Assembly (NCBI GenBank): GCA_000996355.1
Contig: LCAH01000001.1
Coordinates: forward strand, 85,958 to 149,957
DNA: 64,000 bases
Direction of reading: 5' to 3'
Source: Candidatus Uhrbacteria bacterium GW2011_GWC2_41_11
Lineage (GTDB): Bacteria > Patescibacteriota > Patescibacteriia > UBA9934 > GWF2-40-263
Shown here piece by piece: positions 12,349 to 31,480 of the stretch. Position 1 is the first letter of the stretch. The number at the start of each line of letters is the position of its first letter. The notes under the pieces are model-generated. The model searched no databases, was not told where the DNA came from, and worked only from the letters and a program-made list of their open reading frames with translations. The translations under genes were made by a program, and so were the position numbers.

Positions 12349-12425
12349 TGGTGGACGCACCTGGATTCGAACCAGGGACCTCTGCAATGTGAATGCAGCG
12401 CTCTAACCAACTGAGCTATGCGTCC
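12349..12425 (-). tRNA. tRNA-Val (anticodon CAC)
   Basis: Reverse complement folds as a cloverleaf: acceptor GGACGCA/TGCGTCC, D-arm GCTC-AGTTGGTTA-GAGC, anticodon stem CTGCA/TGCAG with loop TTCACAT (U33, CAC, A37), T-arm CCTGG-TTCGAAT-CCAGG, and an encoded CCA. Confidence 0.9.
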
Positions 12426-12540
12426 ATGTCTGGCAGAATAGCAAAGGTTTCTTTTCTCTTCAAGAGAGAGATTGAAGACTTGTCGTGATGTTTTTTTTCT
12501 GATATTGTGACCCTATCTTAAGCCTTTTTTCATAAGGATT

Positions 12541-13158: not shown

Positions 13159-13199
13159 TTATGAAACATGAATTTCATGTTTCTTTCATTTGAGCGTTT

Positions 13200-14630: not shown

Positions 14631-14672
14631 CAACAAATTGATTTTTCAGTATCTTTTTGCCGAAAGGTTCGG

Positions 14673-14693
14673 GGTCGTTAAACGACCTATTTA
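14673..14693 (+). terminator. Weak hairpin after hisS
   Basis: ggtcgt-taa-acgacc followed by a tatttat tail. Confidence 0.3.
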
Positions 14694-14747
14694 TCCAAAA
14701 GAGATTTTTTGAAATTCTCTTTATCTAAGAAAGGAAGGTGATTATCT

Positions 14748-14999
14748 GTGCTTGATATTAAACGTCGTAAAGGAGAAAGCTTTGAAAGTATGCTCCGCCG
14801 ATTTACAAAACGGATCCAGGAAAGCGGAAAAATGCTTCAGGCAAAAAAAATTCGTTTTCATACGAAAAAGAAAAATAAGAACGCCGCTCGCAAGAGTGCA
14901 CTGCGTCGCATTGAATTGGCAACCAAGCGGGAATATCTCATCAAGACAGGTCGTCTCACCGAAGAGGATCAGCGACATCAACACCGTTCATATCGATAA
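14748..14999 (+). CDS. rpsU: 30S ribosomal protein S21
   Basis: GTG start preceded by aggaaggtg; basic 83-aa protein with LRRFTKRIQESGKMLQAKKIRFHTKKKNKNAARKSA matching S21. Confidence 0.88.
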   Translation: MLDIKRRKGESFESMLRRFTKRIQESGKMLQAKKIRFHTKKKNKNAARKSALRRIELATKREYLIKTGRLTEEDQRHQHRSYR

Positions 15000-15055
15000 G
15001 ATAAAAAGAAAAAAGGTGATGTGGCTTTGCTCGTCACCTTTTTTAAAAAAAATGT

Positions 15056-15499
15056 ATGTCTATACTTGAACGAATTCAACAGGAGACAACGGCAGCCATG
15101 AAAGAACATCGAGAGGCGGAACTTTCTACCCTTCGTCTTTTGCGTGCGGCTTTGAAGAATCGACAAATTGAATTATTGCGGGAATTGTCAGATGAGGATG
15201 TTCTTGCCATTGTGCGTTCACAAATAAAACAGATAAAAGATGCAATTGTTTCTTTTGAAGCCGGGCAGCGTGCAGATTTAATTGAGAAGGCAAAAGCGGA
15301 AATAAAAGTGTTGGAACACTATCTTCCTGCTCCTTTATCTCAAGAAGAACTTGTGACAATCGTGCGGACTGCTTTGGAAGCGGCAGGTCTTTCAAAAAAA
15401 ACAGATAAGGGAAAAGCCATGGGTATTGCCATGAAAGCGCTCGCGGGTCGTGCAGATGGAACACAAATAAAAGAGGTTGTTGAGACCTGTTTGGCCTAA
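15056..15499 (+). CDS. yqeY: GatB/YqeY domain protein
   Basis: YqeY-family sequence throughout (…LRLLRAALKNRQIE…KAKAEIKVLEHYLP…GKAMGIAMKALAGRADG). The rpsU-yqeY pairing is typical. Confidence 0.85.
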   Translation: MSILERIQQETTAAMKEHREAELSTLRLLRAALKNRQIELLRELSDEDVLAIVRSQIKQIKDAIVSFEAGQRADLIEKAKAEIKVLEHYLPAPLSQEELVTIVRTALEAAGLSKKTDKGKAMGIAMKALAGRADGTQIKEVVETCLA

Positions 15500-15501
15500 T
15501 T

Positions 15502-15744
15502 ATGATCGAGCATCTTTCTTCTATTGTGATGCAGGAATGGTTTTTTCGTTTTGTACGAGTCTTGTCTCTTTTTGCCATGATTATTTTTATTCACAGCATT
15601 TTGTTTGGAGCATTTAAACATATGAATGCTTCCGGTCGTGATGATTTGACAGGGGATGGTCGAAAATACATATTGACTGGAACACTTGGCGCGATTGCAA
15701 TGATGATGTTTTTTTTCATGGCTTCGGCTGCTCTTGCTGATTGA
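15502..15744 (+). CDS. Small 2-TM membrane protein, possibly a minimal TrbC/VirB2-like pilin-type protein
   Basis: 80 aa laid out as helix (LSLFAMIIFIHSILFGAF), a polar loop with GDG, then helix (LTGTLGAIAMMMFFFMASAALA). Starts 3 nt after the yqeY stop, directly upstream of the pilin-module proteins. Confidence 0.5.
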   Translation: MIEHLSSIVMQEWFFRFVRVLSLFAMIIFIHSILFGAFKHMNASGRDDLTGDGRKYILTGTLGAIAMMMFFFMASAALAD

Positions 15745-15845
15745 CGATTGCGGGATGTTTTTATTTCTCTGGGCATGAGAAATGATTTCGTGTACAATAA
15801 AGAAAAATTGGCTGAGGTTTCATGTTGCAGAGAGGGAACCACAAT

Positions 15846-17699
15846 ATGCGTTTACGAAAGACCGCCATGGCTCTTGGCGTATTTGTGTTTGTGGGGATTT
15901 TGATGGTGTTAGGAACAAGAGATGTTTACGCACAAATAAACAGTGCAAGCGTGAATGCTGTCGGTTCTGCTTCCGGATTGTCTACGCAGGAATTAACGAT
16001 TCTTATTGCTCGTATCATTCGGGCAGCGCTTGGTGTTCTTGGAATTGTTTTCGTTGCACTGATTGTGTATGCCGGTTATTTGTACATGATTTCATCCGGC
16101 GATCCGGTGAAAACAGCGAATGCAAAAAAAATCATCAAAAGTGCTGCGATAGGTCTTGTCATTATTTTTGCTTCGTATTCCATTGCGAGTTATGTCCTTG
16201 GAAGATTATTAGCTGCGGCCGGACTCGCAGGAACAACGACAACAACAGCTGCACCATATTCAGAACCATTATCCGGTTCTCTTGGATCTGGAATGATTGA
16301 AAATCATTACCCAGGACGCAACGCTATTGATATTCCTCGCAATACTCGAATCATGATTACATTCAAGGAACCAATGAATCCTGATTCTTTTGTAAAGGAT
16401 GATGATAAGGATCCAGCGACAACCGATGATATGAATACAGATAATCTTTTGATCTATCCAACGGATTCTGTGAATGGATCTGAAGGAGTTGAAGCAAAAG
16501 ATGTTGCATTGGCGAGTACGGCTGTTGCGGTTAGTTATACGGAAGATCTTCGTACCTTTGTTTTTGATCCTATTGATTTGTTGGGGAATGCGCTTGAAGA
16601 TACAAATTATACCGTGAAAATACAGCCAGATAGTTTGAAAGCTGATGGAACAGCAGTGTTTTCCGGAGCCTATGCAGAAGGATATGAATGGAGTTTTGAA
16701 GTTTCAACCGAAGTAGACCTCACTCCTCCAAAAGTGGTCTCTGCCATTCCTGTCTCTTCAGACAATCCATACGATCGGAATGTGACGATTCAGATCACAT
16801 TTAATGAGGCTATGGATCCCGTTGCTGTATCCGGAACCTACGATCCGAATCAAGAAAAAACATTTTCTAATATCGAAATAGTAGCCACTCCTGAGGGAGA
16901 AACGAAAAATAACGTTTATGGATCTTTTCTTATAAGTAATGGATACAAGACCGTAGAATTTACCTCGTTTGATGCATGCAGCAAGGATCCTTGCGGAGAT
17001 ACCATTTATTGTCTGCCAGCGCTTGCAAATATCGAAGTACAAGCACATGCAGCAGGTTTGAGTACCGATCCGCCTCAAGCTTCCATGATAGGTGGTTTGT
17101 TTGATGGACTAGCTGATGCGGCAGGAAATTCTCTTGATGGAGATGGAGATGGAACTGCAGAAGGTCCTGGGGTAAGTTTAGATGATTATCAATGGAATTT
17201 TCAGACATCAGACGCTATTAATGATGATGTTCCAGAAATTATTTCTTTGTCTCCGGGAATTCGAGAAGAAAATGTGGATTTGAACACACAGGTGAAAGTG
17301 ACGTTTAATATGCTTATGCAGTCATCTTCATTAAATAGTGATGCGATTCGTCTTATTCCAGATCAGGTACAGGAACTTTGGTATACTCTTTCGCAGATGT
17401 CTTTAAATAGCAACTTTCAACCAGCAAATGTAGAAGAAAACCCTGTTTATACCCAGGCAATGGTGGATCATGCTTCTTTTTGGGAGAGTGATGAAACACA
17501 GGGAATTTTTTATAATTACTATCCTGTCATTTCGAATGATGTAAAGAGCGTCTATCAGATTTGTATGTATCCATCATACGGACCGTCCAATAGTGAAAGT
17601 TTTTCCTCGTGTGCAACCACATTGCAACCGTATTGTTGTGATGGACTTCCTTCAAATAAGGCGTGTACAACAAATAAGGGAACAACCCTCGGTGATTAG
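15846..17699 (+). CDS. Secreted/surface protein (~617 aa): signal peptide, TrbC/VirB2-like pilin module, then an ectodomain
   Basis: Start set at the ATG with gagggaacc 8 nt upstream; the track ORF begins at 15822. Has a signal peptide, then LTILIARIIRAALGVLGIVFVALIVYAGYLYMISSGDPVKTANAKKIIKSAAIGLVIIFASYSIASYV (two TM helices flanking a short loop), then a Thr-rich linker and about 480 aa with no TM. Confidence 0.75.
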   Translation: MRLRKTAMALGVFVFVGILMVLGTRDVYAQINSASVNAVGSASGLSTQELTILIARIIRAALGVLGIVFVALIVYAGYLYMISSGDPVKTANAKKIIKSAAIGLVIIFASYSIASYVLGRLLAAAGLAGTTTTTAAPYSEPLSGSLGSGMIENHYPGRNAIDIPRNTRIMITFKEPMNPDSFVKDDDKDPATTDDMNTDNLLIYPTDSVNGSEGVEAKDVALASTAVAVSYTEDLRTFVFDPIDLLGNALEDTNYTVKIQPDSLKADGTAVFSGAYAEGYEWSFEVSTEVDLTPPKVVSAIPVSSDNPYDRNVTIQITFNEAMDPVAVSGTYDPNQEKTFSNIEIVATPEGETKNNVYGSFLISNGYKTVEFTSFDACSKDPCGDTIYCLPALANIEVQAHAAGLSTDPPQASMIGGLFDGLADAAGNSLDGDGDGTAEGPGVSLDDYQWNFQTSDAINDDVPEIISLSPGIREENVDLNTQVKVTFNMLMQSSSLNSDAIRLIPDQVQELWYTLSQMSLNSNFQPANVEENPVYTQAMVDHASFWESDETQGIFYNYYPVISNDVKSVYQICMYPSYGPSNSESFSSCATTLQPYCCDGLPSNKACTTNKGTTLGD

Positions 17700-17708
17700 T
17701 CACAACAC

Positions 17709-20700
17709 ATGAAAACACGTTTTTTCTTCATTTCTTGTTTCGTCATTCTTTTTTGGGGCATATCGGCTCAATGGTTTGATATTCCTCCGGCTTTGGCTCA
17801 AGCGATTCAAACAAATGAGGCATTTGGCGGAGTAGCCCCAGAGAGTTTTGCAGAAACAGCCGGATTAGCTGGAGGAGATATCACTCTTATTATTGCTCGG
17901 TTGATTCGAGTAGTTCTTGGAACGCTTGGGGTTGTAGCTGTGGCATTTGTTTTGTATGGCGGATTTTTGTGGATGACCTCGAGAGGGGAAGATCTAAAGA
18001 TAAAGAAAGCAAAGATGATCATGACAAATGCATTGATTGGTTTGATCATTGTTTTGTCATCGTTTGCTATTGCTCAATTTGTGATCAGTCGACTGTCTTC
18101 TGCAACAGGAGCAGGAACGACAACAGAAGGAACAGAAAAAACAACGTATAATGATGTGTTAGATGCGAGTGCAACTTTTGTTTTGCGTTCTGTGAATACA
18201 GAATGTGCTTCCGCGATTCGCAACCTTGAACTTCAATTTATTTTTAGTCAGAACGTTTCTGTTTCCACAGTGAATGATAGTGGAATTGTTGTTTCTCGTG
18301 CGGATGGAGATCCGGTTTCTGGTTCTTTTGAAACATCGGGAAGTCGTGTGACGTTTATTCCATCTGCAACATGCACAACTTCAGACGGAATTGAGGTTCA
18401 TTGCTTTGATGCAGAAACAGTTTATGAAGTGAATCTGAGTTCTGCTGTTTTGAAGAGTAGTTCCGGTCGTACGCTTGAATGTTCTGAAACATATCCCTGT
18501 CACCAAACATTTACGACTGGGTCTGGTTTCGATACGAAAAAACCAGATATCCAGATGACAAGTCCAGATGATGGCGGTTCAGCATATAGTGGCACAGCAG
18601 AACTTCTTCAGGCACTTACTTCTGATGATTCAGGTGTTTCTTCTCTTGAATTTTCTTTGGATGGAGATGCTGTGGATGTGGCTGGTCTCGATGAGAGTTC
18701 AGCTCTCGCCCTTGCCATGGAAAATATTTTTTATGGGGAGTGGGATACCGTTGGGTATGTCACAAATAAAATGTATCATTTTTCTGCGGAGGGATTTGAC
18801 TGCGGGGGAAATAGTGATACGTCTTCAGAAATCGATGTTGTTTTACGCGCTCCGAATTGTAACAATGATATACAGGATGCAGAAGATCCTTATTTTGAAG
18901 ACGGAGTTGACTGCGGAGGAAATCAATCAGATGAATATTATTGCGGAGCGTGTAATGGGTCCTCTTGTATAGAAAATTCTGATTGTGCTTCAGGGAGTTG
19001 TGCAGAAAACATTTGTGTCTATTCAGCTGAAATAGAAGCCATTTTTCCTGGAGACGGTGCTCCTGGAAACTTGATGACAATTTCTGGAAACGGATTTGGA
19101 AATACGCAAGGTACGATTCTTTTTCTTGGAAGTATTGATGATGATACAGATGATGTTTCTGTTGGTCCTTATACTGCTTGTGACGGAACATGGACCGATA
19201 ATCAAATTGTCATTCAACTTGATGAAAAAATGGTAAGTGGACCGGTCGAGCTCGTGACCTCGGATGGATTTCGAGATAGAACCGATGATGAAAATGGTCC
19301 ATTGATCAGCGATTTTGAAGTGAATACAACCGTACGTCCCGGGCTTTGTCGTGTGGATCCAGAGAAGGCGTCTGGAAAAGATACAGTCACGGTTCAGGGA
19401 AATAATTTTGGAGACAATCAAGGATCTTCAGTTTTGTATTTTGATACATCAACCGCTTCGAGTTATCCATCTTGGGCGTCAAATAGTTTGAAAGCGGTTG
19501 TTCCTCTTCTTGACACTGGCTCGTATGACCTCCAGTTATTTGGAGGGAATGGAGATACGCGAGAGGGTTCAAACAAGTTGATATTTAACATCAATTCAAC
19601 CTCATCAAGTTCGGAACCGCCAGTTATTAGCGATGTGGATACAGGAGTGAAGCGTTGTGAAGATGAAAAAGGTTTCATTTGTACAGATGATGCAGATTGT
19701 GTGGCTGGTATTCCTTGTGCAGAAGATAAAAATGCCGGTCCGATCAGTCAATATGTGACGATTTACGGTTCGCATTTTGGAACAACTCCTGGAACCGTAC
19801 GTTTTCGAAACCAAGATCTTGATCTTGTCGCTCTTGCAGATACAAATTTTCCAGACAGTTGTGGAGAGGATTTCTGGGACAATGACAGTATTCTTGTGAA
19901 AGTTCCGAAAATATATGATTTATCTGATGGACATGCACTGAATGTTGGTTTGCATGATCTTTGGGTTGTTCGAGGAGAAGATGGAACTGTTTCTGATCCT
20001 GTGGATTTTGAAGTGATTGAAGGAAAAGCTGGACCAAGTATTTGTGCGGTAGAACCAGACGCAGGTCCTCCAGGGACAGATGTTTCATTTTTTGGTGAAG
20101 AATTTGGGAGTGATAAAGGATCTGTTATTTTTTACGAAAATCAAAAAGTTTCTCCAGGGGCATGGTCTGATGAACAGATCTCTGGAACCATTCAAAATCC
20201 CCTTCAAGTTCCAACTCAAGCAAAAACAGGTCCAGTAAAAATTCAGGCAGATGATGGACAATATTCGAATTCTGTTTCCTTTGAAGTCGGAATGTGTGAC
20301 GTTGATTTTTCTTGTGGAAGCGGACAGGAGTGTTGTGCGGATGGAGCATGTCGAATTGAGGAAACATGTAAGGAATCTATTCCTGTTTCCCATTACGCAT
20401 ACTTTTTTTCCACAGGAGACATTCCGGAAGCTCCGGAAGTGATTATTGAATGTAGTGATACGTATATTTCTCCAACTCCATGGGAATTTTGGGAAGGAGG
20501 AACAGATGTTTGTTTGACCGCAGCCGTTGCTGCATCTTTTTCCGAACCCATGGATACAAAAACATTTACTTCTTCAACTATTTCCGTTGAAAAGTGTCTT
20601 TTAGCGAATTGTGATTCAACAACTGCTGTGGAGATGTCTCCAAAAGGAAATCCAACAAGCATGGCCGAAACATCTTTTTTCTGGGAACCAGCTCAGGATT

Positions 20701-23700
20701 TTGAGCCTGAAACACGTTATCGTATAACTGTGAAAGGTGGAGAGAATGGCGTGAAGAGTGTACAAGGAGTTGCTATGGAAAAGGATTCGCAGTGGGAATT
20801 TGTTACAGCTCCTTCTGGAAATGAATGTACGATTGGCGGAGTGTATTTGACGCCTGCAAAATTTACCGCAACAGAAAAAGAACAACGTGTTCAATATACT
20901 GTTGCGCCTATTTCAGATGAATATCAGTGTCTTCTTTTAAGTTGTACAAATCATCAATGGACATACAATAGCAGTGATCCTTCAAAGGCAGATTTTGCCG
21001 AATTTGAAAATGCTTGTTCTTTGAAAGTGGCTGTTCATAAGGAAACAAACCCTGGGGTTCCTGTGGTGATTACTTCCTGGTTGTATGATAATGGAAATTT
21101 GGGTCCAAATGATACCGCAGATTTGACAATCAATTTTACGGATCCAAAAATTATTGACTTCTGGCCTGGTTGTGATTCCGTTTGTTTAAATGCTTCTGTT
21201 TCAGCTGTCTTTAATATTGACATGAAAGATGAATTTTCTGGATTTGAAATAGGGGGAGATCACATGGTTCGTCTGTATGAATGTGAAGATCCTGGGTGTA
21301 CATCAGATGAATTAACAGAAGTCAATGATCGTTCTGTTACATATGATTTGGAAACATTCACTGTTACCATTCGTTCGAATACGGATTTGAAGACGGATAC
21401 TTCTTATCGAGTAGTTTTTTCAGGGGAATTAACATCGACCAGTGATGTTTCTCTTTCGAAATCTGCTTCTGATCTCGCCTACGGAGACGATTTTTCGTGG
21501 ATTTTTACAACAAAAGATGAAGCGTGTGCAGTCAATCGTGTGGAGGTTACTCCTGAACAAGTGACCCTTACTATTATTGGCGAACGTCAAACATTTCAAG
21601 CAACGCCGTATAGTGCTCCAGATGATTGTTCGGAAAACGGTCAGGCATTAAACGGAGATCATTATCAATGGTCTGCTTGGACCGCGGAAGATGTGGAAAA
21701 TAACGTGGAAGACGCAGATGTCGTTCAGCTCATGGTAGATGGAAAAATTCGTGTAAGCGAAACATTTCCAGCTTACTGTTCAAGTTCTTCTTGCAATACC
21801 ATTGGATCGAATACCCCGGTGGCTATTTGCGGAAATAACACGGTTCATTGTACGACCGATGCAAATTGTGTTGCGTATGGAGCAGACGCAACTTGCAATG
21901 ATTTTGGTCAATGTGTGGAACCGGGGGAAGATTGTGATGACGGAAATGTCACGGAAAATGACGGTTGTTCTTCTATTTGTCTGACAGAAGGAGTGACAGC
22001 ATGTGTATCTTTGACAGACGTTGGTTGTTGTGGGAACGGAGTGCGTGAAGGACGGGAGGAATGTGATGATAAAAACACAAAAAATGGAGACGGATGCTCA
22101 AGTGTTTGTTTAAATGAGGGAGCAAAGGCTTTGAAATATGATTGTGGAGATGGAAAAGTGGCACAAAGTGCATCAACAGGAGGAGAAGAATGTGATTGGA
22201 AAGAGGAAAATGATGTGTATGGTTGTTCTTCCAATTGTTTGAATGTTGGTTCGATTTCCAAAGAAGATCTTTATGCAATTTGTGGAAATGGGGCGCAGGA
22301 AAACGGAGAAGATTGTGATGATAAAAACACAAAAAATGGAGACGGATGTTCGTCTACTTGCCAAAATGAGGGTTCTTCGTCTTCCTATAGTTCTGTCTGC
22401 GGAAACAATAAAATAACCTGCCATAAAAATGTAGATTGTAGTTCATATGGAAGTGGAACACAGTGCAATGTATTAGGGCAATGTGTGCAAACAGGAGAGG
22501 ATTGTGATGATGGAAATATAGAGGACGGAGATGGGTGTTCTTTTAACTGTCTGTTTGAGGGTTCGAGTGTGGAATATACAAATCCGTCTATTTGCACGGA
22601 CGGAACAATTGGAACAGGTGAAGCATGTGATGCGGAAGAAGTAGGAACAGTGATTGCCGGTTTTGGAGTGGCAGAAATAACCACAGATGCTCCGGAAGAG
22701 GTTACAATAAGCGGAACAGGAACAGCATCTTCAACCGTGACAGCTACAGAAGGAACAAGTGGAGTGACTGGTTTCGCGACAGTGACACTGGAATGTTCTT
22801 GTACGTCTGATGTTTCGTGTGGGGATGCTGAGGTATATGGATGTGGAGACGCGAATTGTTGTTTTGAACGTCCGCATATTCTTCTTCCAACGACTCCAGC
22901 AAATGGAAAAACAGATGTCTGTCGCAACACAGCAGTAGCTGTTGATTTTGATCAAATCATGGATGAAACGTCTTTTAAACAGACGATTGGTGAAGGAGAA
23001 AATCAAACCGTGGAATTAAACATGTATCTAGAACTCACGGCTGTGAATGGAACAAAAATAACAGATGCAAATGCTACAACTCTTTGTCCAGCAAGTTATC
23101 ATAAGGAAGTTGCATTTGCAGATGAATTATCCAATCCACTTGTTCGAATCTGGGATTGGCTTGTTCGCGGAGTGGCAAAATTGTTCAATCATGTTTATGC
23201 AGCAGAAATATCTTGTCAGCTAGCTGTTTCATATTCCATAGAAAAAACAGATACCGGTTCCAAAGTCTATGTAAACTATGGAGAAGCTCTTCAAGCGAAC
23301 GGAACGTATCGTTTGATTGTGATGGGTGATTCGGATGATTTAGATGGAAAATCAGATGGAGTGAAAAGTACATATGGTGTTGCTCTTTTGGAAGACATAT
23401 CAACAACATTCACGGTAGGAAATGAAATTTGTGCATTGGAAGCAGTTCAAGTGACAGATGAAGGAAAAGAAATTGTGACTGAATTTGATGATGCAAGTTC
23501 CGGATTTTTTAGCGAACAAGGAGAACAACACACCCTGACAACAACCGCTTTTACTCTTCATGGTGCAAATCAGGAAGAAATTCAGGAGATTGCCGGTGTA
23601 TATGATTGGAATTGGTCTTGGGATTCGACATCTTCAGATACTGAGGCAGATAATGCTGTCTCTGTGACAAAAGCGGACACAACACAAACAACAGCTGTTG

Positions 23701-26700
23701 GCGTAGCAAATGGAAAGGAAAACGGAATAGCTATAGCAACAATTACCACAGACGTTGTGGGAAAATCTGTCGGTTCTGAGGTATCCGGCACTGTTTCTCT
23801 TACCGCATTTTTGTGTGAAAATCCTTGGCCAAATCCAGAGGAAACAATTTTTCCTTTTGCCGATACAGCAGAGGCAGGTTTTGATTTTAATTTGAGCTCT
23901 CCTTATACAAATTTTTCCTTTTCCTATTGTCGTGATATGGAAGGAAAAAATACAACACTTCCAGAGCTTCGAGTTGTTGAGACGCCTCAATCTCCTATTT
24001 CAGAAATTTATAAAGAAATTCTTTTCCTTGTTGAAGGAACGAACGATGCAGTCGGTGTTCGTGTTTTTTCCAATGAGAAGTATTTATCCCCAAATGAATG
24101 GTATAAAGATCAGGCATTTACAGGTTCACCAACATCAACACTGTTTGATGGTTATGAGGCGATTCAGGATGGAGATACCTATTATGTGGTTGCGGCGAAC
24201 CAGGATGGAGATACCATTTATCCAAATATTTATGTGATTTCGGTTAATGAAGATGCCGGAGACGAAACAAAACAGATCATGAGTCAAATTCTTAAGAACT
24301 GGTTATTCAATGCCAATAGTGATGTGGTGACCGATTTGAACGTGTGTCGTACTGGTTCAGAGTATCTTACCGATTCAGTGACGGGAGGTTTTGTTTCATG
24401 TGATTGGGATCAAGATTGTCGTCAGGTTACCTATAGTGATAGTTCCTCCGCAGTCGTTCCGGATGGATGGTGTGATGCGCAGAAAGCCAAGTTATCGAGA
24501 GATATGCGTCGTTTGACAGATATTAAAACGATAGAACAGACACTTGATTCGTATGGAGATATTCATCGGCATTGTTCAGCAACGTACAGTCAGGCATGTG
24601 GCACGGATGATGATTGTTCAGGAGATGAAATATGTCTTGCTAATGTCCCTTTAATTCAGAGCGGTTCATTTCTGCGTGCATTTACAACAAGTACCTGGCC
24701 GTCCTGGTCAGCCGTTCTTGCAAATGAACTCGGAACGTCTCTTCCGCAAGATCCAATCAATATATTTGTAAGTTGTCCGGATGGAACTCAAGAAACGTAT
24801 TGTTGGGATGGTACACAAGGAATTTTTCAGTGTCAGGAAGGGTCCCATGCATATCTCTTTCAGAGTGTTGCAGGAGAAAGTTATAATCTTTATGCTCAAC
24901 TTGAAATGGATGAAGCAGATTGGGTCTACAATATAGATGATGACGCGACAGATAATGCCAACATTTTTGTAGAGTATGCACAAAGTTCAAATCCCGATGG
25001 GTTTTATCGGGATAGTGAAATGTGTAGCGGGGTTTTGATAGGAAGTTCAGCAAGGTGTGGGGATGGAGTTTTGGCAACAACAGAAATGTGCGAAATTGGT
25101 CAATCAAAAACAAAAGAATGCGACGCAAATGGAGACGGTGATATGGATGGGACTATTTCTTTAGCATGTATCAATGATGGAGGAATATGTCGATATCAAA
25201 CATCATCTGATTCGAATCTCTCTGAATGTATTTTGTATGAATGTGGCAATGGAGTGATGGATCCGGGAGAAACGTGCGATGATGCAATTTTGAATGGGAC
25301 GTATGGTTTTTGCGATGAAAATTGTTCACTTGCAGGTGCATTTTATTGTGGGGATGGCAGTATAGCCGGAGGAGAAGAATGTGACTGTGGAAGCAATACA
25401 GACACAATGGACACCGGTTCCTGGTCATCGATTCATTGCAGTAAATCAAATGGACAATATACCACGAATCCAGATGGTGGATGTGCGTTTGACTGCACAT
25501 TTCCTGGTCCTTCATGTGGAGATGGAGAAATAAATGGCGATGAAGCGTGTGATGGGGATTATAAGTCTTGGTCTGGCAAACTCTGCGGATCCGCGGATGC
25601 GTATGTCTCTTGTGAAACGGATACTGAATGTATGGATACGGAATGCGGTGATGGTGGATCGTCGTGTCCTATGTCTTCGATTTGTGTCGGGGGAAGTAAT
25701 GCAGGTGCAGCATGTACAGATTCTTTGGATTGCAACAGTGGCGACTGTTCTGATATCACCTATCAGCTTGTTCGATATCGAAGTTGTGACGATTCCGACG
25801 CAACTCCAACGTGCACTTGGAATCAGACAACAAATCCAGGAGATTGGACGGATTGCGTAGGAGGAAATCAATATTGCGGAAATGGAGTTCAGGAAGGAAA
25901 AGAAGAATGTGATGATGGAAATACGGATAACAGTGATGCGTGTACAACTTTATGTAAAATAAATGTGTGTGGAGATGGACATTCGTATAATGGTGTTGAA
26001 ACGTGTGATGAGGGCGACCAAAATGGCGTTGTTTGTACAGCCGATTATCAAGATACTTGTGCGTACTGTACGGTCTCATGTCAATACACAGTTGTTTCAG
26101 GGGCTTATTGCGGCGATCAGGTAATTGAAGAAGAAACAGAATATTGTGATGGAACTTCTGTTTCAAAATTCTGTTTTAAACCGCATGATACTCCGGACGA
26201 ACGTGATGTGACTGGAATGTGTGAAACGGATGCAGATTGCAATGTAAACGCAGGGTATACCTGTGAAACAACAGGTGTTTGTGATGGTGGCTCTCATTTG
26301 TTTGGAAGCGGAGATACAGCGACCTATGCAGACTATAATGGTCTTCCGTGTGTAAGCGGAAGTATAGAGTTTGACGAACGTTGCGGAACAACAAATAGTG
26401 GAACAGGAACATCTGAAGGGGTGTGCGTAGCGCCTGAATGTGCCAGTTCATGTTTTTCTTCTTGTCCTTATACATACGAACAATCTTCTATCTTGATTCA
26501 GACAGAGCTTTCAAATGCAACACAACAAACATCCGCTGACCTTTATAGTTATCTCTCAGGTCAGAGTCCGGACACAGCGCTGCTTTTTTTGCCAGCATGT
26601 ACCGTTGGAACTCAGTTAATGGCTGATATTGATATGTCTGATGTCGAACCTCCGACGGTAGATATTGTATTTGTGACAGATTTGTCTGGAAGTATGACCA

Positions 26701-27965
26701 CGGTGTTGGATACAAAAACAGGAGATAACCGTATTCAAGTGACGGTTGATTCTATGACGCAGGCTATTCAGGATTTATTCGATGATTATGGAGGTAATTC
26801 AGCAAATATGCGTATCTCCACAGTGAGTTTTACTGATTATTTGTCTGATGGTGTTGATACAGATGGAGAAAACGGAATTACAGACAGTGACGGATGTATT
26901 CAAGACACAAAAGATGGTGATGCTCTTGCGTGGATTGATCATGGGCTTGGTTCATCAACGGGAGAAAATGACATGTTATACAATGCGGAAACCGGTGTGG
27001 AAACATATGTAGCACGCGCTCACGGATATACCCCTACTGCTGCCGGACTTAAATGTGCTGATAAGGTTTTACAAAATTCTGATGCTAATTATAAAGTAAT
27101 TGTTTTGTTGAGTGACGGAGAACCAACCATTAATCTTGCTGGAGTGATCAATACATCTACACCAGAATCGAATGTCCCAGAAGTTGTATCTGTGCGCGAT
27201 CAGATGATATCCAAAGGAATTCATATATTTACAGCAGCCTTAACGACAAATACAGATCTTGTCGGATACATGGCTCACTTTTCAAGTGATGTTTGCGGAA
27301 CATGTGATGCGTGTGAATCATCATGTGAAACAAGTTGTGCCTCCGAATGTTCGGGTGAAAGTGCAACAGATCAATCATGTGTTGATGACTGTGAAGCAAA
27401 TGGAGATCTGTGTCTGGAAGATTGTGCAACGGATGTAGATTGTGATGTCGATTGCGACGGTATGGTCGGATCAGCCTTGAGTGCATGTTTAGGAGCGTGT
27501 ACTTCTGCAGTTAATTGTGTAGATACGTGTGAAAAGACCATCAAGTCATGTAAGGACTTGTGTACACCGACGGATGAGGAATGTGAGGATTCTTGTGTAG
27601 ATACATGTACATCTTCATCTTGTGAAGGATCCTGTCTTTCTTACGAAGATGTTAATGATTGTAAACCAAGAGAATCAGTTGAATATGCCTATTCTGCATC
27701 TACCGCAGAAGATCTTGAAACAATGTATCAGACGATCGTGGACAGTATTCTTGGTGTGACTGTTGGATTTACAACGGATTTTGCCGGACAGACGACCTTG
27801 ACATCTGGAGTGGTTGCTGACGGAGATAATGTCATAATGCCGTTTCCAGAAGGATTTGATTGCCGCACAACTGGTGCATGGACCATTCCATTCCGAATAA
27901 GTTTTGCAGGAACAGGGGTTGTTCATATCAGTGATATTTCTTTGAATTATTGTCCGATAGATTAA
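17709..27965 (+). CDS. Giant (3418 aa) cell-surface protein: signal peptide, TrbC/VirB2-like pilin module, IPT/TIG repeats, Myxococcus-type cysteine-rich repeats, vWA domain, Cys-rich C-terminus
   Basis: Uninterrupted 10.26-kb ORF. The N-terminal module ITLIIARLIRVVLGTLGVVAVAFVLYGGFLWMTSRGEDLKIKKAKMIMTNALIGLIIVLSSFAIAQFV is paralogous to the 15846 gene. Four IPT/TIG-like units (IFPGDGAPGNLMTISGNGFG, VQGNNFG, IYGSHFG, FFGEEFG). At least eight repeats of CGNGxxExGEECDDGNxxxGDGCSxxC. A vWA with MIDAS DLSGSM...SDGEPT near the C-terminus, then a Cys-rich tail. Confidence 0.85.
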   Translation: MKTRFFFISCFVILFWGISAQWFDIPPALAQAIQTNEAFGGVAPESFAETAGLAGGDITLIIARLIRVVLGTLGVVAVAFVLYGGFLWMTSRGEDLKIKKAKMIMTNALIGLIIVLSSFAIAQFVISRLSSATGAGTTTEGTEKTTYNDVLDASATFVLRSVNTECASAIRNLELQFIFSQNVSVSTVNDSGIVVSRADGDPVSGSFETSGSRVTFIPSATCTTSDGIEVHCFDAETVYEVNLSSAVLKSSSGRTLECSETYPCHQTFTTGSGFDTKKPDIQMTSPDDGGSAYSGTAELLQALTSDDSGVSSLEFSLDGDAVDVAGLDESSALALAMENIFYGEWDTVGYVTNKMYHFSAEGFDCGGNSDTSSEIDVVLRAPNCNNDIQDAEDPYFEDGVDCGGNQSDEYYCGACNGSSCIENSDCASGSCAENICVYSAEIEAIFPGDGAPGNLMTISGNGFGNTQGTILFLGSIDDDTDDVSVGPYTACDGTWTDNQIVIQLDEKMVSGPVELVTSDGFRDRTDDENGPLISDFEVNTTVRPGLCRVDPEKASGKDTVTVQGNNFGDNQGSSVLYFDTSTASSYPSWASNSLKAVVPLLDTGSYDLQLFGGNGDTREGSNKLIFNINSTSSSSEPPVISDVDTGVKRCEDEKGFICTDDADCVAGIPCAEDKNAGPISQYVTIYGSHFGTTPGTVRFRNQDLDLVALADTNFPDSCGEDFWDNDSILVKVPKIYDLSDGHALNVGLHDLWVVRGEDGTVSDPVDFEVIEGKAGPSICAVEPDAGPPGTDVSFFGEEFGSDKGSVIFYENQKVSPGAWSDEQISGTIQNPLQVPTQAKTGPVKIQADDGQYSNSVSFEVGMCDVDFSCGSGQECCADGACRIEETCKESIPVSHYAYFFSTGDIPEAPEVIIECSDTYISPTPWEFWEGGTDVCLTAAVAASFSEPMDTKTFTSSTISVEKCLLANCDSTTAVEMSPKGNPTSMAETSFFWEPAQDFEPETRYRITVKGGENGVKSVQGVAMEKDSQWEFVTAPSGNECTIGGVYLTPAKFTATEKEQRVQYTVAPISDEYQCLLLSCTNHQWTYNSSDPSKADFAEFENACSLKVAVHKETNPGVPVVITSWLYDNGNLGPNDTADLTINFTDPKIIDFWPGCDSVCLNASVSAVFNIDMKDEFSGFEIGGDHMVRLYECEDPGCTSDELTEVNDRSVTYDLETFTVTIRSNTDLKTDTSYRVVFSGELTSTSDVSLSKSASDLAYGDDFSWIFTTKDEACAVNRVEVTPEQVTLTIIGERQTFQATPYSAPDDCSENGQALNGDHYQWSAWTAEDVENNVEDADVVQLMVDGKIRVSETFPAYCSSSSCNTIGSNTPVAICGNNTVHCTTDANCVAYGADATCNDFGQCVEPGEDCDDGNVTENDGCSSICLTEGVTACVSLTDVGCCGNGVREGREECDDKNTKNGDGCSSVCLNEGAKALKYDCGDGKVAQSASTGGEECDWKEENDVYGCSSNCLNVGSISKEDLYAICGNGAQENGEDCDDKNTKNGDGCSSTCQNEGSSSSYSSVCGNNKITCHKNVDCSSYGSGTQCNVLGQCVQTGEDCDDGNIEDGDGCSFNCLFEGSSVEYTNPSICTDGTIGTGEACDAEEVGTVIAGFGVAEITTDAPEEVTISGTGTASSTVTATEGTSGVTGFATVTLECSCTSDVSCGDAEVYGCGDANCCFERPHILLPTTPANGKTDVCRNTAVAVDFDQIMDETSFKQTIGEGENQTVELNMYLELTAVNGTKITDANATTLCPASYHKEVAFADELSNPLVRIWDWLVRGVAKLFNHVYAAEISCQLAVSYSIEKTDTGSKVYVNYGEALQANGTYRLIVMGDSDDLDGKSDGVKSTYGVALLEDISTTFTVGNEICALEAVQVTDEGKEIVTEFDDASSGFFSEQGEQHTLTTTAFTLHGANQEEIQEIAGVYDWNWSWDSTSSDTEADNAVSVTKADTTQTTAVGVANGKENGIAIATITTDVVGKSVGSEVSGTVSLTAFLCENPWPNPEETIFPFADTAEAGFDFNLSSPYTNFSFSYCRDMEGKNTTLPELRVVETPQSPISEIYKEILFLVEGTNDAVGVRVFSNEKYLSPNEWYKDQAFTGSPTSTLFDGYEAIQDGDTYYVVAANQDGDTIYPNIYVISVNEDAGDETKQIMSQILKNWLFNANSDVVTDLNVCRTGSEYLTDSVTGGFVSCDWDQDCRQVTYSDSSSAVVPDGWCDAQKAKLSRDMRRLTDIKTIEQTLDSYGDIHRHCSATYSQACGTDDDCSGDEICLANVPLIQSGSFLRAFTTSTWPSWSAVLANELGTSLPQDPINIFVSCPDGTQETYCWDGTQGIFQCQEGSHAYLFQSVAGESYNLYAQLEMDEADWVYNIDDDATDNANIFVEYAQSSNPDGFYRDSEMCSGVLIGSSARCGDGVLATTEMCEIGQSKTKECDANGDGDMDGTISLACINDGGICRYQTSSDSNLSECILYECGNGVMDPGETCDDAILNGTYGFCDENCSLAGAFYCGDGSIAGGEECDCGSNTDTMDTGSWSSIHCSKSNGQYTTNPDGGCAFDCTFPGPSCGDGEINGDEACDGDYKSWSGKLCGSADAYVSCETDTECMDTECGDGGSSCPMSSICVGGSNAGAACTDSLDCNSGDCSDITYQLVRYRSCDDSDATPTCTWNQTTNPGDWTDCVGGNQYCGNGVQEGKEECDDGNTDNSDACTTLCKINVCGDGHSYNGVETCDEGDQNGVVCTADYQDTCAYCTVSCQYTVVSGAYCGDQVIEEETEYCDGTSVSKFCFKPHDTPDERDVTGMCETDADCNVNAGYTCETTGVCDGGSHLFGSGDTATYADYNGLPCVSGSIEFDERCGTTNSGTGTSEGVCVAPECASSCFSSCPYTYEQSSILIQTELSNATQQTSADLYSYLSGQSPDTALLFLPACTVGTQLMADIDMSDVEPPTVDIVFVTDLSGSMTTVLDTKTGDNRIQVTVDSMTQAIQDLFDDYGGNSANMRISTVSFTDYLSDGVDTDGENGITDSDGCIQDTKDGDALAWIDHGLGSSTGENDMLYNAETGVETYVARAHGYTPTAAGLKCADKVLQNSDANYKVIVLLSDGEPTINLAGVINTSTPESNVPEVVSVRDQMISKGIHIFTAALTTNTDLVGYMAHFSSDVCGTCDACESSCETSCASECSGESATDQSCVDDCEANGDLCLEDCATDVDCDVDCDGMVGSALSACLGACTSAVNCVDTCEKTIKSCKDLCTPTDEECEDSCVDTCTSSSCEGSCLSYEDVNDCKPRESVEYAYSASTAEDLETMYQTIVDSILGVTVGFTTDFAGQTTLTSGVVADGDNVIMPFPEGFDCRTTGAWTIPFRISFAGTGVVHISDISLNYCPID

Positions 27966-27967
27966 AT

Positions 27968-28849
27968 ATGAATGTATTTGATGAATCTCCTTCGGAAAGA
28001 CCTCTTTTTTTCCAGAAACGTTTTTTAATGATTGCAGGAGCAATGGTTGTTTTTATTCTTCTTATTTTTTTTGTCTGGAATGTCGTCTCACATCGAAATG
28101 AAACAAAACAACAGGAAGGTCTAGTAAAACAAGCAACTGCGGAATTGGAAAAAGCGCTTGCTCTATGTCAGAAGTCAGATGATCCAACCGGTTGTGCTCA
28201 AACAAAGATAGGAGAAACAGCTATACGTATTGGAGCAGCAATCATTTGTACAAAACTCGATGGGGAGGCAAAAGATAATTGTGTTTTGGGTACGGCTCTT
28301 GAACATGGTCAGATAAAGGATTGTGATTTGATGGAAGATAAAGAAGGAAAGACTTCATGTGAGGATGCCGTGTATCAGCGTCTTGCTTACGAAGAAAATC
28401 ATTTAGACTATTGCAATAAAATGGAGAGTTCTCTTGGAAAAGATCGGTGTTTAGATGGAGTGAGTTATCAAATAGCTGTTAAACAGGGATGCGGGGAAAA
28501 AACAGGAATCGAACCATCCGTCTGCGAAGCGATTCAGACGCTTGAAAGAGTTATCGCAAGTCAGGATCCTTCTCAATGTATGAATATATTTCAAGAAAAC
28601 GATCGTTCTGTTTGTTTGGAAGCGATTGGGTCAGGGGATCGTGACCATGATGATTTAACAGGGGATCAGGAAACACGTTTCGGAACAAGTGATACGAATC
28701 CAGATACAGACGGAGATGGTCTCACAGACAAAGATGAAATAATGGTGTGGGGAACGAATCCTCTTGTGTCTGATTCGGATGGAGATCATTTTACAGATGC
28801 CGAGGAAGTTCAAGGAGGATATAATCCGCTTGGCGCAGGACGTTTATAG
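27968..28849 (+). CDS. Membrane-anchored protein with a Cys-rich region and C-terminal thrombospondin type-3-like Ca-binding repeats (paralog 1 of 3)
   Basis: ATG 3 nt after the giant gene's stop. TM helix MIAGAMVVFILLIFFVW; C-terminus DTNPDTDGDGLTDKDEIMVWGTNPLVSDSDGDHFTDAEEVQGGYNPLG. Confidence 0.7.
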   Translation: MNVFDESPSERPLFFQKRFLMIAGAMVVFILLIFFVWNVVSHRNETKQQEGLVKQATAELEKALALCQKSDDPTGCAQTKIGETAIRIGAAIICTKLDGEAKDNCVLGTALEHGQIKDCDLMEDKEGKTSCEDAVYQRLAYEENHLDYCNKMESSLGKDRCLDGVSYQIAVKQGCGEKTGIEPSVCEAIQTLERVIASQDPSQCMNIFQENDRSVCLEAIGSGDRDHDDLTGDQETRFGTSDTNPDTDGDGLTDKDEIMVWGTNPLVSDSDGDHFTDAEEVQGGYNPLGAGRL

Positions 28850-28894
28850 GAATATACTTAAAAGAGTTATTTTTTACGATTGTGTTTTCTTTTT

Positions 28895-29557
28895 ATGTTT
28901 GAGAACGTAAAAAAAGAGCCTGAGGATATTTTTGCTGGAAGCGAAGGGGCTGTCCCGACTCCACCTCCTCCTGTTGCTCTTGCGGGTCAATCTCTTTCTT
29001 CTTCTCGGGAAATTTCTTCGTCCCCCATTTCATCGGAGCAAACCAGAGAAAAACAGACATCTCATTGGTCATGGAAAATGATCGGAATAGTTGGGATGGC
29101 AATTGTCATTGTTGCTGTGGCAGGCGTATTGTCTTCTCGAATTTTAGCAAGTCGTACAAAATCGTCAGATCGCGTTCCTTCTGTGCAAACAGACGAAGAA
29201 AAGATGCAAGAATTAAAAAAAGAGACAGAAAAAATACCAAAAACAACCTCTGAACAAAATAAACCTCAAGAACAAACGTCTGTTATTTTTCCAACTCCAA
29301 TTGTTGTTCCAGAACCAGACGCAGATAAAGATGGTCTTTCTGATGCACAGGAGGCAGAAATTGGAACGAGTCCAACAAATGCAGATACAGATGGTGACGG
29401 GTTGTTTGATCAGGAAGAGGTTGCTGTTTATAAAACCAATCCTCTGAACCCTGATACGGATGGAGATACGTATTTGGATGGAAAGGAAGTATCAAGCGGA
29501 TATAATCCAAATGGTTCTGGAAAATTATTTACTGTTCCAACAGAGGTTGCCCCGTGA
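28895..29557 (+). CDS. Membrane-anchored protein with thrombospondin type-3-like repeats (paralog 2 of 3)
   Basis: ATG at 28895 (the track's TTG at 28880 is the alternative). TM IGIVGMAIVIVAVAGVL; C-terminus PDADKDGLSDAQEAEIGTSPTNADTDGDGLFDQEEVAVYKTNPLNPDTDGDTYLDGKEVSSGYNPNG. Confidence 0.7.
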   Translation: MFENVKKEPEDIFAGSEGAVPTPPPPVALAGQSLSSSREISSSPISSEQTREKQTSHWSWKMIGIVGMAIVIVAVAGVLSSRILASRTKSSDRVPSVQTDEEKMQELKKETEKIPKTTSEQNKPQEQTSVIFPTPIVVPEPDADKDGLSDAQEAEIGTSPTNADTDGDGLFDQEEVAVYKTNPLNPDTDGDTYLDGKEVSSGYNPNGSGKLFTVPTEVAP

Positions 29558-29581
29558 TAAATACACGTCTTACATAGTGTT

Positions 29582-30589
29582 ATGCCGGATCGTTCTCTAT
29601 CAGTGATTGAAACTCCGGAAGAGGTAAACAAACATTCTGTTGATCCTCTTATTTTTACGATGCCTGAAAAGTATCGGGGGCTTGCCGTTACACAAAAATC
29701 AGTTACACAAAAAACAGTTGTTCCTTTTTCAGGGTCACCTGTTGTTTCTCCACCTGCACCTGTATCTCCGAAAGCTGTTCCGTCTCCACTTTTAAAATCG
29801 AAAATGGCACGATCAACAAAGATTTTACTTATTGCTGGCGGTGTTTTCATTCTGGGAATGGGAGGAACAGGTATTTATTTTGTTTTTTTACGATCTCAAC
29901 CTGCACAACAGCAGGAAATTGTCTCTAAACCGGTTGTCAAAGAACCTATAAAACAAGAACAACCGAAGCCAGTTGTTAAAGAGGAGCCGTCAAAGGAAAA
30001 AATACCTGTTTCGCCTTTTCCGAAAGAATTACTTCCTGGTCGTGATACGGACAGTGATGGATTAACAGATGTGGAAGAAGTTGTATTTGGAACCAATAGC
30101 GGACTTCCAGATTCAGACGCTGACGGATATCTCGATGGAAATGAAGTATCGCATGGATATAATCCAAAAGGAACAGCACCGACAACATTGCTCGAATCTG
30201 GTGCTATAAAAGAATATGCCGCACCTGGAGCCGTCTATCGTTTTTTTTATCCAATTGGCTGGACAACACGAACAGGAGAAATCGATCCGTTGCAAGTCAT
30301 ATTGGTTGTTCCAAGCGGGGAAACAGTGACGGTTACATTGGCGGCAAAAAATGTCACTCAATCTCTGATAGAGTGGTACACTCAAGCGCATCCTGAACGA
30401 CCAGGAACAGATTTTGTTTCAACAACCACAAAAAAAGGATACCCATCCCTTCTTTCGAAAGATCAAATGACTGCCTATGTGGATGCAGGGACAGTTGTGG
30501 CTGCGTTTTTCTATCAATCAGGAACGAAGACGACTCTGGATTATCTCCAGACATTTCAAATGATTTTGAATAGTTTGATTTTAAGTTGA
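29582..30589 (+). CDS. Membrane-anchored protein with thrombospondin type-3-like repeats plus an extra C-terminal domain (paralog 3 of 3)
   Basis: TM ILLIAGGVFILGMGGTGIYFVF; DTDSDGLTDVEEVVFGTNSGLPDSDADGYLDGNEVSHGYNPKG; then about 140 extra residues. Confidence 0.7.
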   Translation: MPDRSLSVIETPEEVNKHSVDPLIFTMPEKYRGLAVTQKSVTQKTVVPFSGSPVVSPPAPVSPKAVPSPLLKSKMARSTKILLIAGGVFILGMGGTGIYFVFLRSQPAQQQEIVSKPVVKEPIKQEQPKPVVKEEPSKEKIPVSPFPKELLPGRDTDSDGLTDVEEVVFGTNSGLPDSDADGYLDGNEVSHGYNPKGTAPTTLLESGAIKEYAAPGAVYRFFYPIGWTTRTGEIDPLQVILVVPSGETVTVTLAAKNVTQSLIEWYTQAHPERPGTDFVSTTTKKGYPSLLSKDQMTAYVDAGTVVAAFFYQSGTKTTLDYLQTFQMILNSLILS

Positions 30590-31068
30590 ATTCTGTGAAA
30601 ATTCAGGTCGAATGGAACCAATCACGTTTACGTGGTGGTCAGTGCTTACCGCATGTGTTTATCCAGCAAATGGTGGATAAAACGGAACAATATATTCATG
30701 GGAAAGGAAATAAATTCGTTTCTGTCGCGTTTGTTTCTCCCAAGGAAATACGTCGTCTGAATCGAGATTATCGTGGAAAAGATGTCGTGACAGATGTGTT
30801 ATCTTTTCCTCTTCATACGGATGTGTTGGCTGGGGAAGTTTTGATTTGTTTTGAACAAGCAAGACTTCAGGCTCAAGAACAAGGTCATGGTATCCGCAAA
30901 GAGATTGGTATTTTATTTGTGCATGGATTGTTGCATATTTTTGGGTTTGATCATGAAACGAAACAGGATCGAAAAAAAATGTTTCTTCTTCAAACGAAAA
31001 TTCTCGCTCAGGTAGGTATTTCTTGGAAGGATCCTTTTTCTGATGCGGAAAAGACAAAAAAAATATGA
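30586..31068 (+). CDS. ybeY: rRNA maturation endoribonuclease YbeY
   Basis: DVLSFPL and the His-triad motif HGLLHIFGFDHE; 4-nt overlap with the upstream gene. Confidence 0.88.
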   Translation: MNSVKIQVEWNQSRLRGGQCLPHVFIQQMVDKTEQYIHGKGNKFVSVAFVSPKEIRRLNRDYRGKDVVTDVLSFPLHTDVLAGEVLICFEQARLQAQEQGHGIRKEIGILFVHGLLHIFGFDHETKQDRKKMFLLQTKILAQVGISWKDPFSDAEKTKKI

Positions 31069-31436
31069 TTCAATTGAGCCGTCTTTTTCAGAGTTTTTGT
31101 CATGCAATGCGTGGACTGAAAATAATCTTTCAATCCGAACAGAGTTTTCGTATTCAAGTTTTTGCTGCTTGTGTTGTTGGAATATTCCTTTTTATGTTTC
31201 CACTTTCTAGGAGTCAGACTGTTGTTATTTTGTTTTTGATGGCCTTTGTTCTCATTCTTGAAATGATTAACAGTATTTTTGAACGTTTAGTTGATGCATT
31301 TAAACCACGTATTCATCCGGTCGTTGGAGAAATAAAAGATATTATGGCAGCGACGGTACTTGTCGCATCTGTTGTCGCAGCATGTATTGGACTTGTAATT
31401 TTTGGACCTCATTTTTTTCGCTTGTTTTTGTCTTGA
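31065..31436 (+). CDS. dgkA: Diacylglycerol/undecaprenol kinase family protein
   Basis: 123-aa, 3-TM protein with LEMINSIFERLVDAF matching the DgkA signature; overlaps ybeY by 4 nt. Confidence 0.8.
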   Translation: MIQLSRLFQSFCHAMRGLKIIFQSEQSFRIQVFAACVVGIFLFMFPLSRSQTVVILFLMAFVLILEMINSIFERLVDAFKPRIHPVVGEIKDIMAATVLVASVVAACIGLVIFGPHFFRLFLS

Positions 31437-31480
31437 AATTTACGTATACTTAAAAGACAGATTCCGTTTTTTAAACGCCT

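Follow-up and report, generated by a model that had tools for sequence, protein, structure and literature searches.

Small VirB2-like pilins of the Pfam family PF18895 are widespread in Patescibacteria, the candidate phyla radiation (CPR). A survey of these genes (Quinonero-Coronel et al. 2025, PMC12102498) found VirB2-like pilins in 1,948 assemblies, beside virB4 in 1,135, with arrays of 2 to 11 pilin genes ("VirB2 arrays") and about 40% of CPR pilin genes away from virB4. One preprint reports that PF18895 dominates freshwater-specific protein clusters. Here, we describe a locus in which the same kind of helical hairpin heads two much larger proteins. The locus lies in a 64,000-nucleotide stretch of Candidatus Uhrbacteria bacterium GW2011_GWC2_41_11 (GenBank assembly GCA_000996355.1, contig LCAH01000001.1, positions 85,958 to 149,957 of the forward strand), which we refer to as the window. 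Our best explanation, to which we give about an even chance of being right, is that the locus encodes a conserved cell-surface protein set of ABY1-class Patescibacteria that is anchored in the membrane by a VirB2-type pilin core. These proteins would be exported by Sec, associate with each other through the hairpin, and bind a ligand on a partner cell or on the envelope.

The locus shares several features with the patescibacterial PF18895 pilins, such as SEML1_0014-0019 of Southlakia epibionticum: the family, the signal peptide followed by a hairpin, the phylum, and the occurrence of tandem divergent copies. The fused modules are 40 to 54% identical to stand-alone CPR pilins of 110 to 175 aa that are named "pilin" or "VirB2 component" in their sources. 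However, known PF18895 pilins are 110 to 185 aa long and often lie beside virB4, whereas the hairpins described here carry ectodomains of 480 and 3300 aa and have housekeeping neighbours. With canonical TrbC/VirB2 pilins (PF04956; Agrobacterium VirB2), the modules have in common a long signal peptide, a PAxA/Q cleavage site (the slash marks the cleaved bond), an amphipathic lead-in, and two hydrophobic helices joined by a short loop. They differ from the canonical proteins as follows: in the Uhrbacteria modules, the stretch from the loop into the start of helix 2 has about 7 more residues and is strongly basic, virB1 and virB3 are not neighbours, and the C terminus is extended instead of free or cyclised. 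The Mbov_0395 family (NF045849), found in integrative and conjugative elements (ICEs) of Mycoplasma, matches nearly the full length of the module, and its monoderm context of the MPF-FATA (mating-pair formation) type is like that of the CPR type IV secretion system (T4SS). In contrast to our proteins, the Mycoplasma proteins are small and ICE encoded, and the module scores under the family cut-off.

Two further comparisons concern architecture. Streptococcus sanguinis PilB is reportedly a modular type IV pilin with a grafted vWA module. As a concept only, this is like the present locus, where a pilin core also precedes a C-terminal adhesive module and where that module likewise includes a VWA domain with a metal ion-dependent adhesion site (MIDAS). 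Type IV pilins nevertheless form an unrelated superfamily, whose members have one N-terminal helix and a class III signal peptide and are processed by a prepilin peptidase. We rejected a type IV pilin reading of the locus because its modules have a Sec-type n-h-c signal with AxA, two helices, and no class III signal peptide; no type IV pilin family of Pfam was matched by the locus proteins. The Pam pilus of CPR was also rejected as a model, as its pilins are of the Ig-fold, donor-strand exchange type without a VirB2-like hairpin (bioRxiv 10.64898/2026.03.03.709456). The giant membrane proteins of Vampirococcus lugosii (PMC8080830) are comparable in being very large and multidomain in a reduced genome, and attachment has been proposed for them. 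A VirB2-like N-terminal anchor is not reported in PMC8080830, and the domain content is different. In the literature searched, we found no description of a VirB2-like hairpin fused to large ectodomains. An initial annotation of the window, made from the letters alone, had remarked that such CPR giants "have been noted"; we could not confirm this in the literature searched. The pilin family is known, and its fusion to large outer domains, common in these bacteria, seems undescribed.

All six open reading frames (ORFs) of the locus are on the + strand and closely packed, and the ORF map and translations placed them where the initial annotation had put them. The block continues unbroken into ybeY, dagK, ftsA, and ftsZ. 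We refer to the 80-aa protein as small, to the 617-aa protein as mid, to the 3418-aa protein as giant, and to the downstream trio as TSP1 to TSP3. The features are as follows (TM, transmembrane; TSP3 repeats, thrombospondin type 3 repeats).

15502-15744, + strand: small, a free-standing two-TM hairpin protein of 80 aa with no signal peptide (translation, module alignment).
15846-17699, + strand: mid, with signal peptide, VirB2-like hairpin, flexible Thr/Ala/Gly linker, and beta-rich ectodomain of about 480 aa; its 617 aa are counted from the ATG at 15846, and the longest ORF (625 aa) opens at 15822.
15846-15935, + strand: predicted Sec signal peptide of mid, cut after VYA (A30/Q31) (sequence reading).
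15984-16217, + strand: VirB2-like hairpin of mid, consisting of helix, SSGD turn, and helix (Pfam residues 55 to 125 of the 625-aa ORF; AlphaFold2).
17709-27965, + strand: giant, with signal peptide (ALA/Q), hairpin, and multidomain ectodomain (translation; Pfam on the whole protein and on segments).
17880-18092, + strand: VirB2-like hairpin of giant (Pfam residues 58 to 125).
26631-27248, + strand: VWA domain of giant, containing the motif DLSGS (MIDAS type) and a loop with LLSDGEPT (Pfam segment, 4rck alignment).
27968-28849 (ORF from 27950), + strand: TSP1, a single-pass membrane protein (N-in) whose ectodomain is Cys-rich and which has Ca-binding TSP3 repeats at the C terminus (PF18884; TM 19-37).
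28895-29557 (ORF from 28880), + strand: TSP2, a single-pass membrane protein with TSP3 repeats (PF18884; TM 62-80).
29582-30589, + strand: TSP3, a single-pass membrane protein with weak TSP3 repeats and an additional C-terminal domain (TM 81-99).

The hairpin module and its family

The mid and giant proteins begin with nearly the same N-terminal module, as the initial annotation had observed. Over 96 aa, the modules of the two proteins share 41% identity (E 1e-23). Each protein starts with a Sec-type signal peptide (VYA/Q in mid, ALA/Q in giant), followed by a lead-in of about 20 residues and two long hydrophobic helices. A four-residue turn, SSGD or SRGE, joins the helices, and a basic KxxKAKK stretch follows the turn. 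The PAxAQ cleavage site is the consensus across 99 mid orthologs and is invariant in the canonical VirB2 alignment. AlphaFold2 modelled the module alone as two helices at residues 6-41 and 46-84, with a predicted local distance difference test score (pLDDT) of 82. The model of full-length mid (pLDDT 89.8) contained helices at 50-82 and 87-124, then a low-confidence linker, and then a confident beta-rich ectodomain.

That the module belongs to a pilin family held up against Pfam. The mid protein matched PF18895 (T4SS_pilin) with 43.4 bits, and its module alone with 49.3 bits, at a cut-off of 26.6. The giant protein fell slightly under this cut-off, scoring 22.5 bits at full length and 26.1 bits as a segment. 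All 43 of the 43 aligned modules matched PF18895. Among the NCBIfam models, the best match of both modules was NF045849, the Mycoplasma ICE pilin-like conjugal transfer protein (E 3.9e-8, positions 8-78 of 80), with 32.9 bits against a family cut-off of 40. MPF-FATA systems are without VirB2 homologs according to PMC12102498, and the NF045849 match, set beside that statement, may bear on the origin of CPR pilins.

The more specific label of the initial annotation, a TrbC/VirB2-type core, stood only in part: the CPR VirB2-like family, the signal peptide, the AxA/Q site, and the hairpin are all there, but the link to canonical TrbC/VirB2 is weak. PF04956 (TrbC/VirB2) was matched by 18 of the 43 modules at E<1, with a best value of 7.7e-5, and CagC by 3; in the Pfam scan, none of the window proteins matched PF04956 at E<=0.01. 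When the module profile was aligned with eight annotated plasmid VirB2/TrbC proteins in hhalign, the two were colinear over 66 columns at E 0.002, with a probability of only 14%. Sequence and profile searches of the module against all PDB chains found no pilins and gave chance matches only (E>0.1). A Foldseek search of the module model against the PDB yielded only generic helical hairpins at E>1, as a two-helix fold is not discriminating. A homolog search with the 129-aa N terminus returned a single fragment, the word index and the database-wide E value being too strict for a short hydrophobic query. Taken together, these comparisons make membership of the module in the CPR VirB2-like pilin family PF18895 firm at the sequence level, while homology to canonical VirB2 is plausible but weak.

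Directly upstream of mid, small had been described as a free-standing two-TM protein of the same layout, and the alignments agree. Its TM segments lie at about residues 20-41 and 57-79. It aligns gaplessly to the modules at 22% identity and scored 15.7 bits (E 0.003) against a hidden Markov model (HMM) built from the two modules, with no match in Pfam. Orthologs occupy the same position in three of the related loci (L002, L003, and L007), where they are 29 to 40% identical to small and score 23 to 31 bits with the module HMM. The L003 and L007 orthologs have a signal peptide, whereas small of the window does not. By alignment and position, small is a real, divergent third member of the array. 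In L007, YqeY and the small pilin-like gene share one stop-to-stop frame (5850-6602), which is either a fusion or has an internal start at MVERLL... giving a signal peptide that ends in AQA.

Ectodomains and conservation of the locus

Pfam recognised three Big_5 Ig-like domains in the mid ectodomain, whose C-terminal part contains Cys. The mid model is similar to Ig domains of the CopC type, to those of L,D-transpeptidase (LdtMt2), and to the S-layer protein SbsC. In giant, the hairpin is followed by Big_5, Big_7, two TIG domains, another Big_5, Cys-rich acidic repeats, more repeats, and finally a C-terminal VWA domain and Cys-rich region. The Cys-rich repeats matched TIGR02232 (myxo_disulf_rpt) five times (E 3.4e-21) as well as DUF4215. 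The VWA domain scored 25.3 bits on the segment against a cut-off of 23.8, with the full-length score under the cut-off, and its DLSGS and LLSDGEPT motifs both align to the VWA protein 4rck. From their domain content, with Ig-like and TIG domains, Cys-rich repeats, and a VWA domain with MIDAS, the ectodomains look adhesive. The predicted topology sets the C-terminal parts outside, and both this and the domain content agree with the extracellular placement in the initial annotation. No S-layer homology or wall-binding domain was detected in the locus proteins with Pfam or NCBIfam.

The downstream trio had been called three tandem paralogs with single TM anchors and TSP3-like repeats. Each protein does have one TM segment, and the PF18884 (TSP3_bac) scores were 40.5 bits for TSP1, 49.1 bits for TSP2, and 22.1 bits for TSP3, the last being under the cut-off of 25. 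"Paralogs," however, overstates their relation, as the three are alike only over a 46- to 77-aa TSP3 region (70 aa between TSP2 and TSP1). They resemble Myxococcus cohesion and gliding proteins through the Ca-binding repeats only.

The mid protein is identical to UU31_C0002G0069 of Candidatus Uhrbacteria bacterium GW2011_GWA2_41_10 (contig LCAD01000002.1, GCA_000994285.1), and the locus is also present, and identical, in GCA_003523645.1. The order LepB-HisRS-S21-YqeY-(small)-mid-giant-(TSP1) was found in six Uhrbacteria-type genomes and one Magasanikbacteria genome. Across these syntenic loci, mid is 32 to 59% and giant 27 to 58% identical, the giant orthologs in L002 to L007 are 3059 to 3468 aa long, and TSP1 orthologs lie directly 3' of giant in L005 and L006. 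Because this gene order recurs in both Uhrbacteria and Magasanikbacteria, we conclude from comparative sequence that the locus is part of the vertically inherited core chromosome and not a mobile element. The LepB (signal peptidase I) gene lies at 12541-13158, four genes 5' of the array, and its proximity is kept in all related loci. LepB is the enzyme expected to process the hairpin precursors; the proximity may be coincidental housekeeping synteny.

Conservation within the proteins was uneven. We collected 384 mid homologs at E<=0.001. Over 116 mid orthologs, the hairpin and the ectodomain had mean column identities of 0.53 and 0.50, compared to 0.23 for the signal peptide, and 46 positions of the strongly conserved ectodomain are invariant among 99 mid orthologs. 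In the giant orthologs, the hairpin is 48 to 63% identical compared to 32 to 58% for the remainder, and the gap is widest in distant orthologs.

Spread of the fusion and other features of the window

The family was surveyed by running a profile of the two modules exhaustively against 1.84 billion cluster representatives (50%-identity clusters). It comprises at least 37,869 clusters at E<=1e-3, and 10,144 at E<=1e-10. Architectures were broken down for the best 150 of the 37,869 matches (P0002-P0151), a set biased to relatives of the query. Stand-alone hairpins made up 14 of these 150, hairpins with a tail of 60 to 1000 aa 49, and hairpins with a tail of more than 1000 aa (up to 4029 aa in total) 25, while 63 contained 2 to 17 tandem hairpins in one polypeptide. 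P0079 (1775 aa) and P0016 (187 aa) are tandem examples; such "poly-pilins" would be polytopic membrane proteins and hint at side-by-side packing of hairpins. Some of the large tails carry unrelated domains, for example the FG-GAP and LamG-like regions of P0114. In a Saccharibacteria metagenome-assembled genome, a weakly matching hairpin is fused to an SLT lytic transglycosylase (L009:9749-10855) beside an M23 peptidase, and a second hairpin is carried by a 547-aa protein (L009:11404-13047). This locus, too, lies among housekeeping genes.

Uhrbacteria relatives also have arrays of four to seven small stand-alone PF18895 genes (L027:9643-11305 and L028:8134-12131). The gene preceding these arrays encodes an SBP_bac_1 solute-binding protein, genes for wall and polysaccharide functions surround them, and the large proteins beside them (829, 538, and 504 aa) had no Pfam match. 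No VirB4 recognisable by Pfam was found within 10 kb of either array. Since these free pilins, too, are without an adjacent VirB4 that Pfam recognises, fused and free pilins of this class cannot be told apart by gene position.

Elsewhere in the window, a scan of 12200-32000 for promoters and terminators gave no usable operon boundary. Promoter-like sites were depleted (31 found versus 44.1 +/- 5.5 expected from shuffled sequence), and terminator-like sites, each a hairpin with a T-run, were enriched (32 versus 13.6 +/- 3.8). Across 1-64000, GC skew is positive nearly everywhere and its cumulative curve rises, the + strand carries most of the genes, and ParA and ParB are located at the window start or just before it. 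A leading-strand segment at no great distance from the origin would fit these observations. A 179-aa ORF at 45101-45640 without a family match combines a signal-like segment at the N terminus with cysteines and, toward the C terminus, a very hydrophobic stretch (residues 155-173); by these features, it may be another anchored surface protein. Three ORFs of 411 to 453 aa, at 10922-12211 (- strand), 2706-3941 (+ strand), and 46912-48273 (+ strand), are kept in conspecific contigs and had no detected TM segments. None of them gave a meaningful Pfam match, the third having only a sub-threshold SpoVIF match, and the first two had no NCBIfam match either.

Readings of the locus and the T4SS link

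If mid and giant are hairpin-anchored surface proteins, as we favour, Sec would export their precursors and signal peptidase I would cleave them, after which the hairpin would insert with both ends outside and its basic loop in the cytoplasm; signal-peptide cleavage and the basic loop together suggest this N-out, loop-in, C-out topology. The 480-aa and 3300-aa parts would consequently be displayed on the cell surface. The hairpin is probably a self-associating unit rather than a passive anchor. Its sequence stays very close to that of stand-alone CPR pilins and of the tandem-hairpin proteins. Its conservation across unrelated ectodomains and its covalent tandem repeats point to specific helix-helix contacts, either self-association or docking to a conserved partner. 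Lateral packing would likely take in the 80-aa protein and small pilins encoded elsewhere, and would cluster or scaffold the ectodomains. The most likely role of giant is to bind a ligand, either on a partner cell or on the envelope of its own cell, by means of the Ig/TIG arrays, the Cys-rich acidic repeats, and the metal-dependent VWA domain; the TSP3 proteins may add Ca-binding surface components.

The vertical inheritance of the block among housekeeping genes and the good conservation of the ectodomains speak for a core role in the envelope and against a determinant of host range. A host-range determinant would evolve fast, and ectodomains conserved to this degree are better explained by a conserved ligand or by a structural part in the envelope. 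That the module may anchor or polymerise an adhesive surface structure, for example for host-cell attachment, as the initial annotation put forward from sequence, is a reasonable hypothesis.

Several points weigh against our explanation. The topology was derived from the positive-inside rule and from the VirB2 analogy. Well-conserved ectodomains would fit a structural envelope role equally well as adhesion. The other points concern the T4SS. In S. epibionticum, the PF18895 proteins are small, and the T4SS cluster includes an essential array of six; because these essential pilins share the Pfam family of our modules, a link to the T4SS has to be taken seriously. In addition, GCA_003523645.1, the near-identical assembly with the identical locus, is listed with VirB4 = Yes (Table S1 of PMC12102498). 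Four other Uhrbacteria genomes with a named mid ortholog appear in the same table, two with VirB4 and two without, and all four are drafts. The two drafts listed without VirB4 leave room for a T4SS-independent role, but the VirB4-negative status is itself that of draft genomes.

The alternative that survives best, though we consider it doubtful, is that mid and giant are true modular T4SS pilins. A VirB4-type machine encoded elsewhere would extract the hairpins and polymerise them with small pilins. The resulting pilus would present adhesins to the host cell, with mid and giant as its minor subunits, its tip subunits, or bottle-brush decorations on it. VirB2/TraA pili have both termini facing outward, so a C-terminal fusion could be displayed. 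This alternative draws on the family shared with the T4SS-clustered pilins of S. epibionticum, the identity to stand-alone pilins, the hairpin being the best conserved part of giant, and the VirB4 listed for the conspecific assembly. The three-gene tandem array of the window also resembles the published arrays of 2 to 11 pilin genes. It has to contend with the distance from any T4SS gene. VirB4, VirD4, VirB6, PrgI, and TrsD were not found among window ORFs of >100 aa, nor within 10 kb beyond either end (84 kb in total), which extends to the flanks the absence of T4SS machinery that the initial annotation had reported for the window. We also rejected the idea of T4SS components hidden among the unannotated ORFs of the window, as none of these is polytopic and none matches the module HMM. 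Furthermore, a VirB2-type pilus has not yet been seen in any Patescibacterium and is treated in reviews as a possibility, two ortholog-bearing drafts have no detectable VirB4, proteins with up to 17 hairpins are hard to square with extraction of one subunit at a time, and a load of 3300 aa per subunit cannot fit a homopolymer. With housekeeping synteny, distance from T4SS genes, VirB4-negative drafts, and polytopic tandem forms against an obligatory link, we consider T4SS dependence possible but not required.

A further reading, which we find unlikely, takes these proteins for structural parts of the core envelope, as in an S-layer-like or wall-associated scaffold, and not for adhesins to another cell. 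Here, the hairpin would merely tether a conserved Ig-like lattice that Ca stabilises via the TSP3 and acidic Cys-rich repeats. The synteny among division and wall genes kept across the whole class, the strongly conserved mid ectodomain with its many invariant positions, and the likeness of the TSP3 proteins to Myxococcus cohesion and gliding proteins through the Ca-binding repeats would suit such a scaffold. The VWA-MIDAS domain and the TIG/Ig arrays of giant, on the other hand, are typical modules of ligand-binding adhesins, and a scaffold is also at odds with the lack of detected S-layer homology or wall-binding domains. Practically no credence is left for the ORFs not being real genes or the N-terminal similarity being a chance hydrophobic resemblance: other membrane families do appear at E 0.001-0.1 and Foldseek did yield only generic hairpins, but the conservation data refute this reading through the E value between the modules, the PF18895 matches of all 43 relatives, the number of mid homologs, the confident mid model, and an uninterrupted 10-kb ORF with orthologs at 32 to 58% identity in six genomes.

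A bolder reading, which we regard as speculative, is that conjugation-type (VirB2-like) pilins can be modular in Patescibacteria, with the T4SS or the hairpins alone building a surface polymer onto which ectodomains of up to about 3300 aa are grafted. If true, the product would be a pilus decorated or tipped with adhesins, or else a membrane lattice, and this would explain both the huge expansion of PF18895 in these bacteria and the essentiality of their pilin arrays.

VirB2-like pilins are among the most abundant Patescibacteria-specific domains and are essential in the one genetically tractable species. Because the same core is found on 600-aa and 3400-aa surface proteins, on enzymes such as a lytic transglycosylase, and chained into as many as 17 hairpins in a row, the family may have to be reframed: besides supplying subunits of a conjugative pilus, it may serve the CPR envelope more generally as a module for display or oligomerisation. 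The mid and giant proteins would then be concrete candidates for the molecules that attach episymbionts to their partners.

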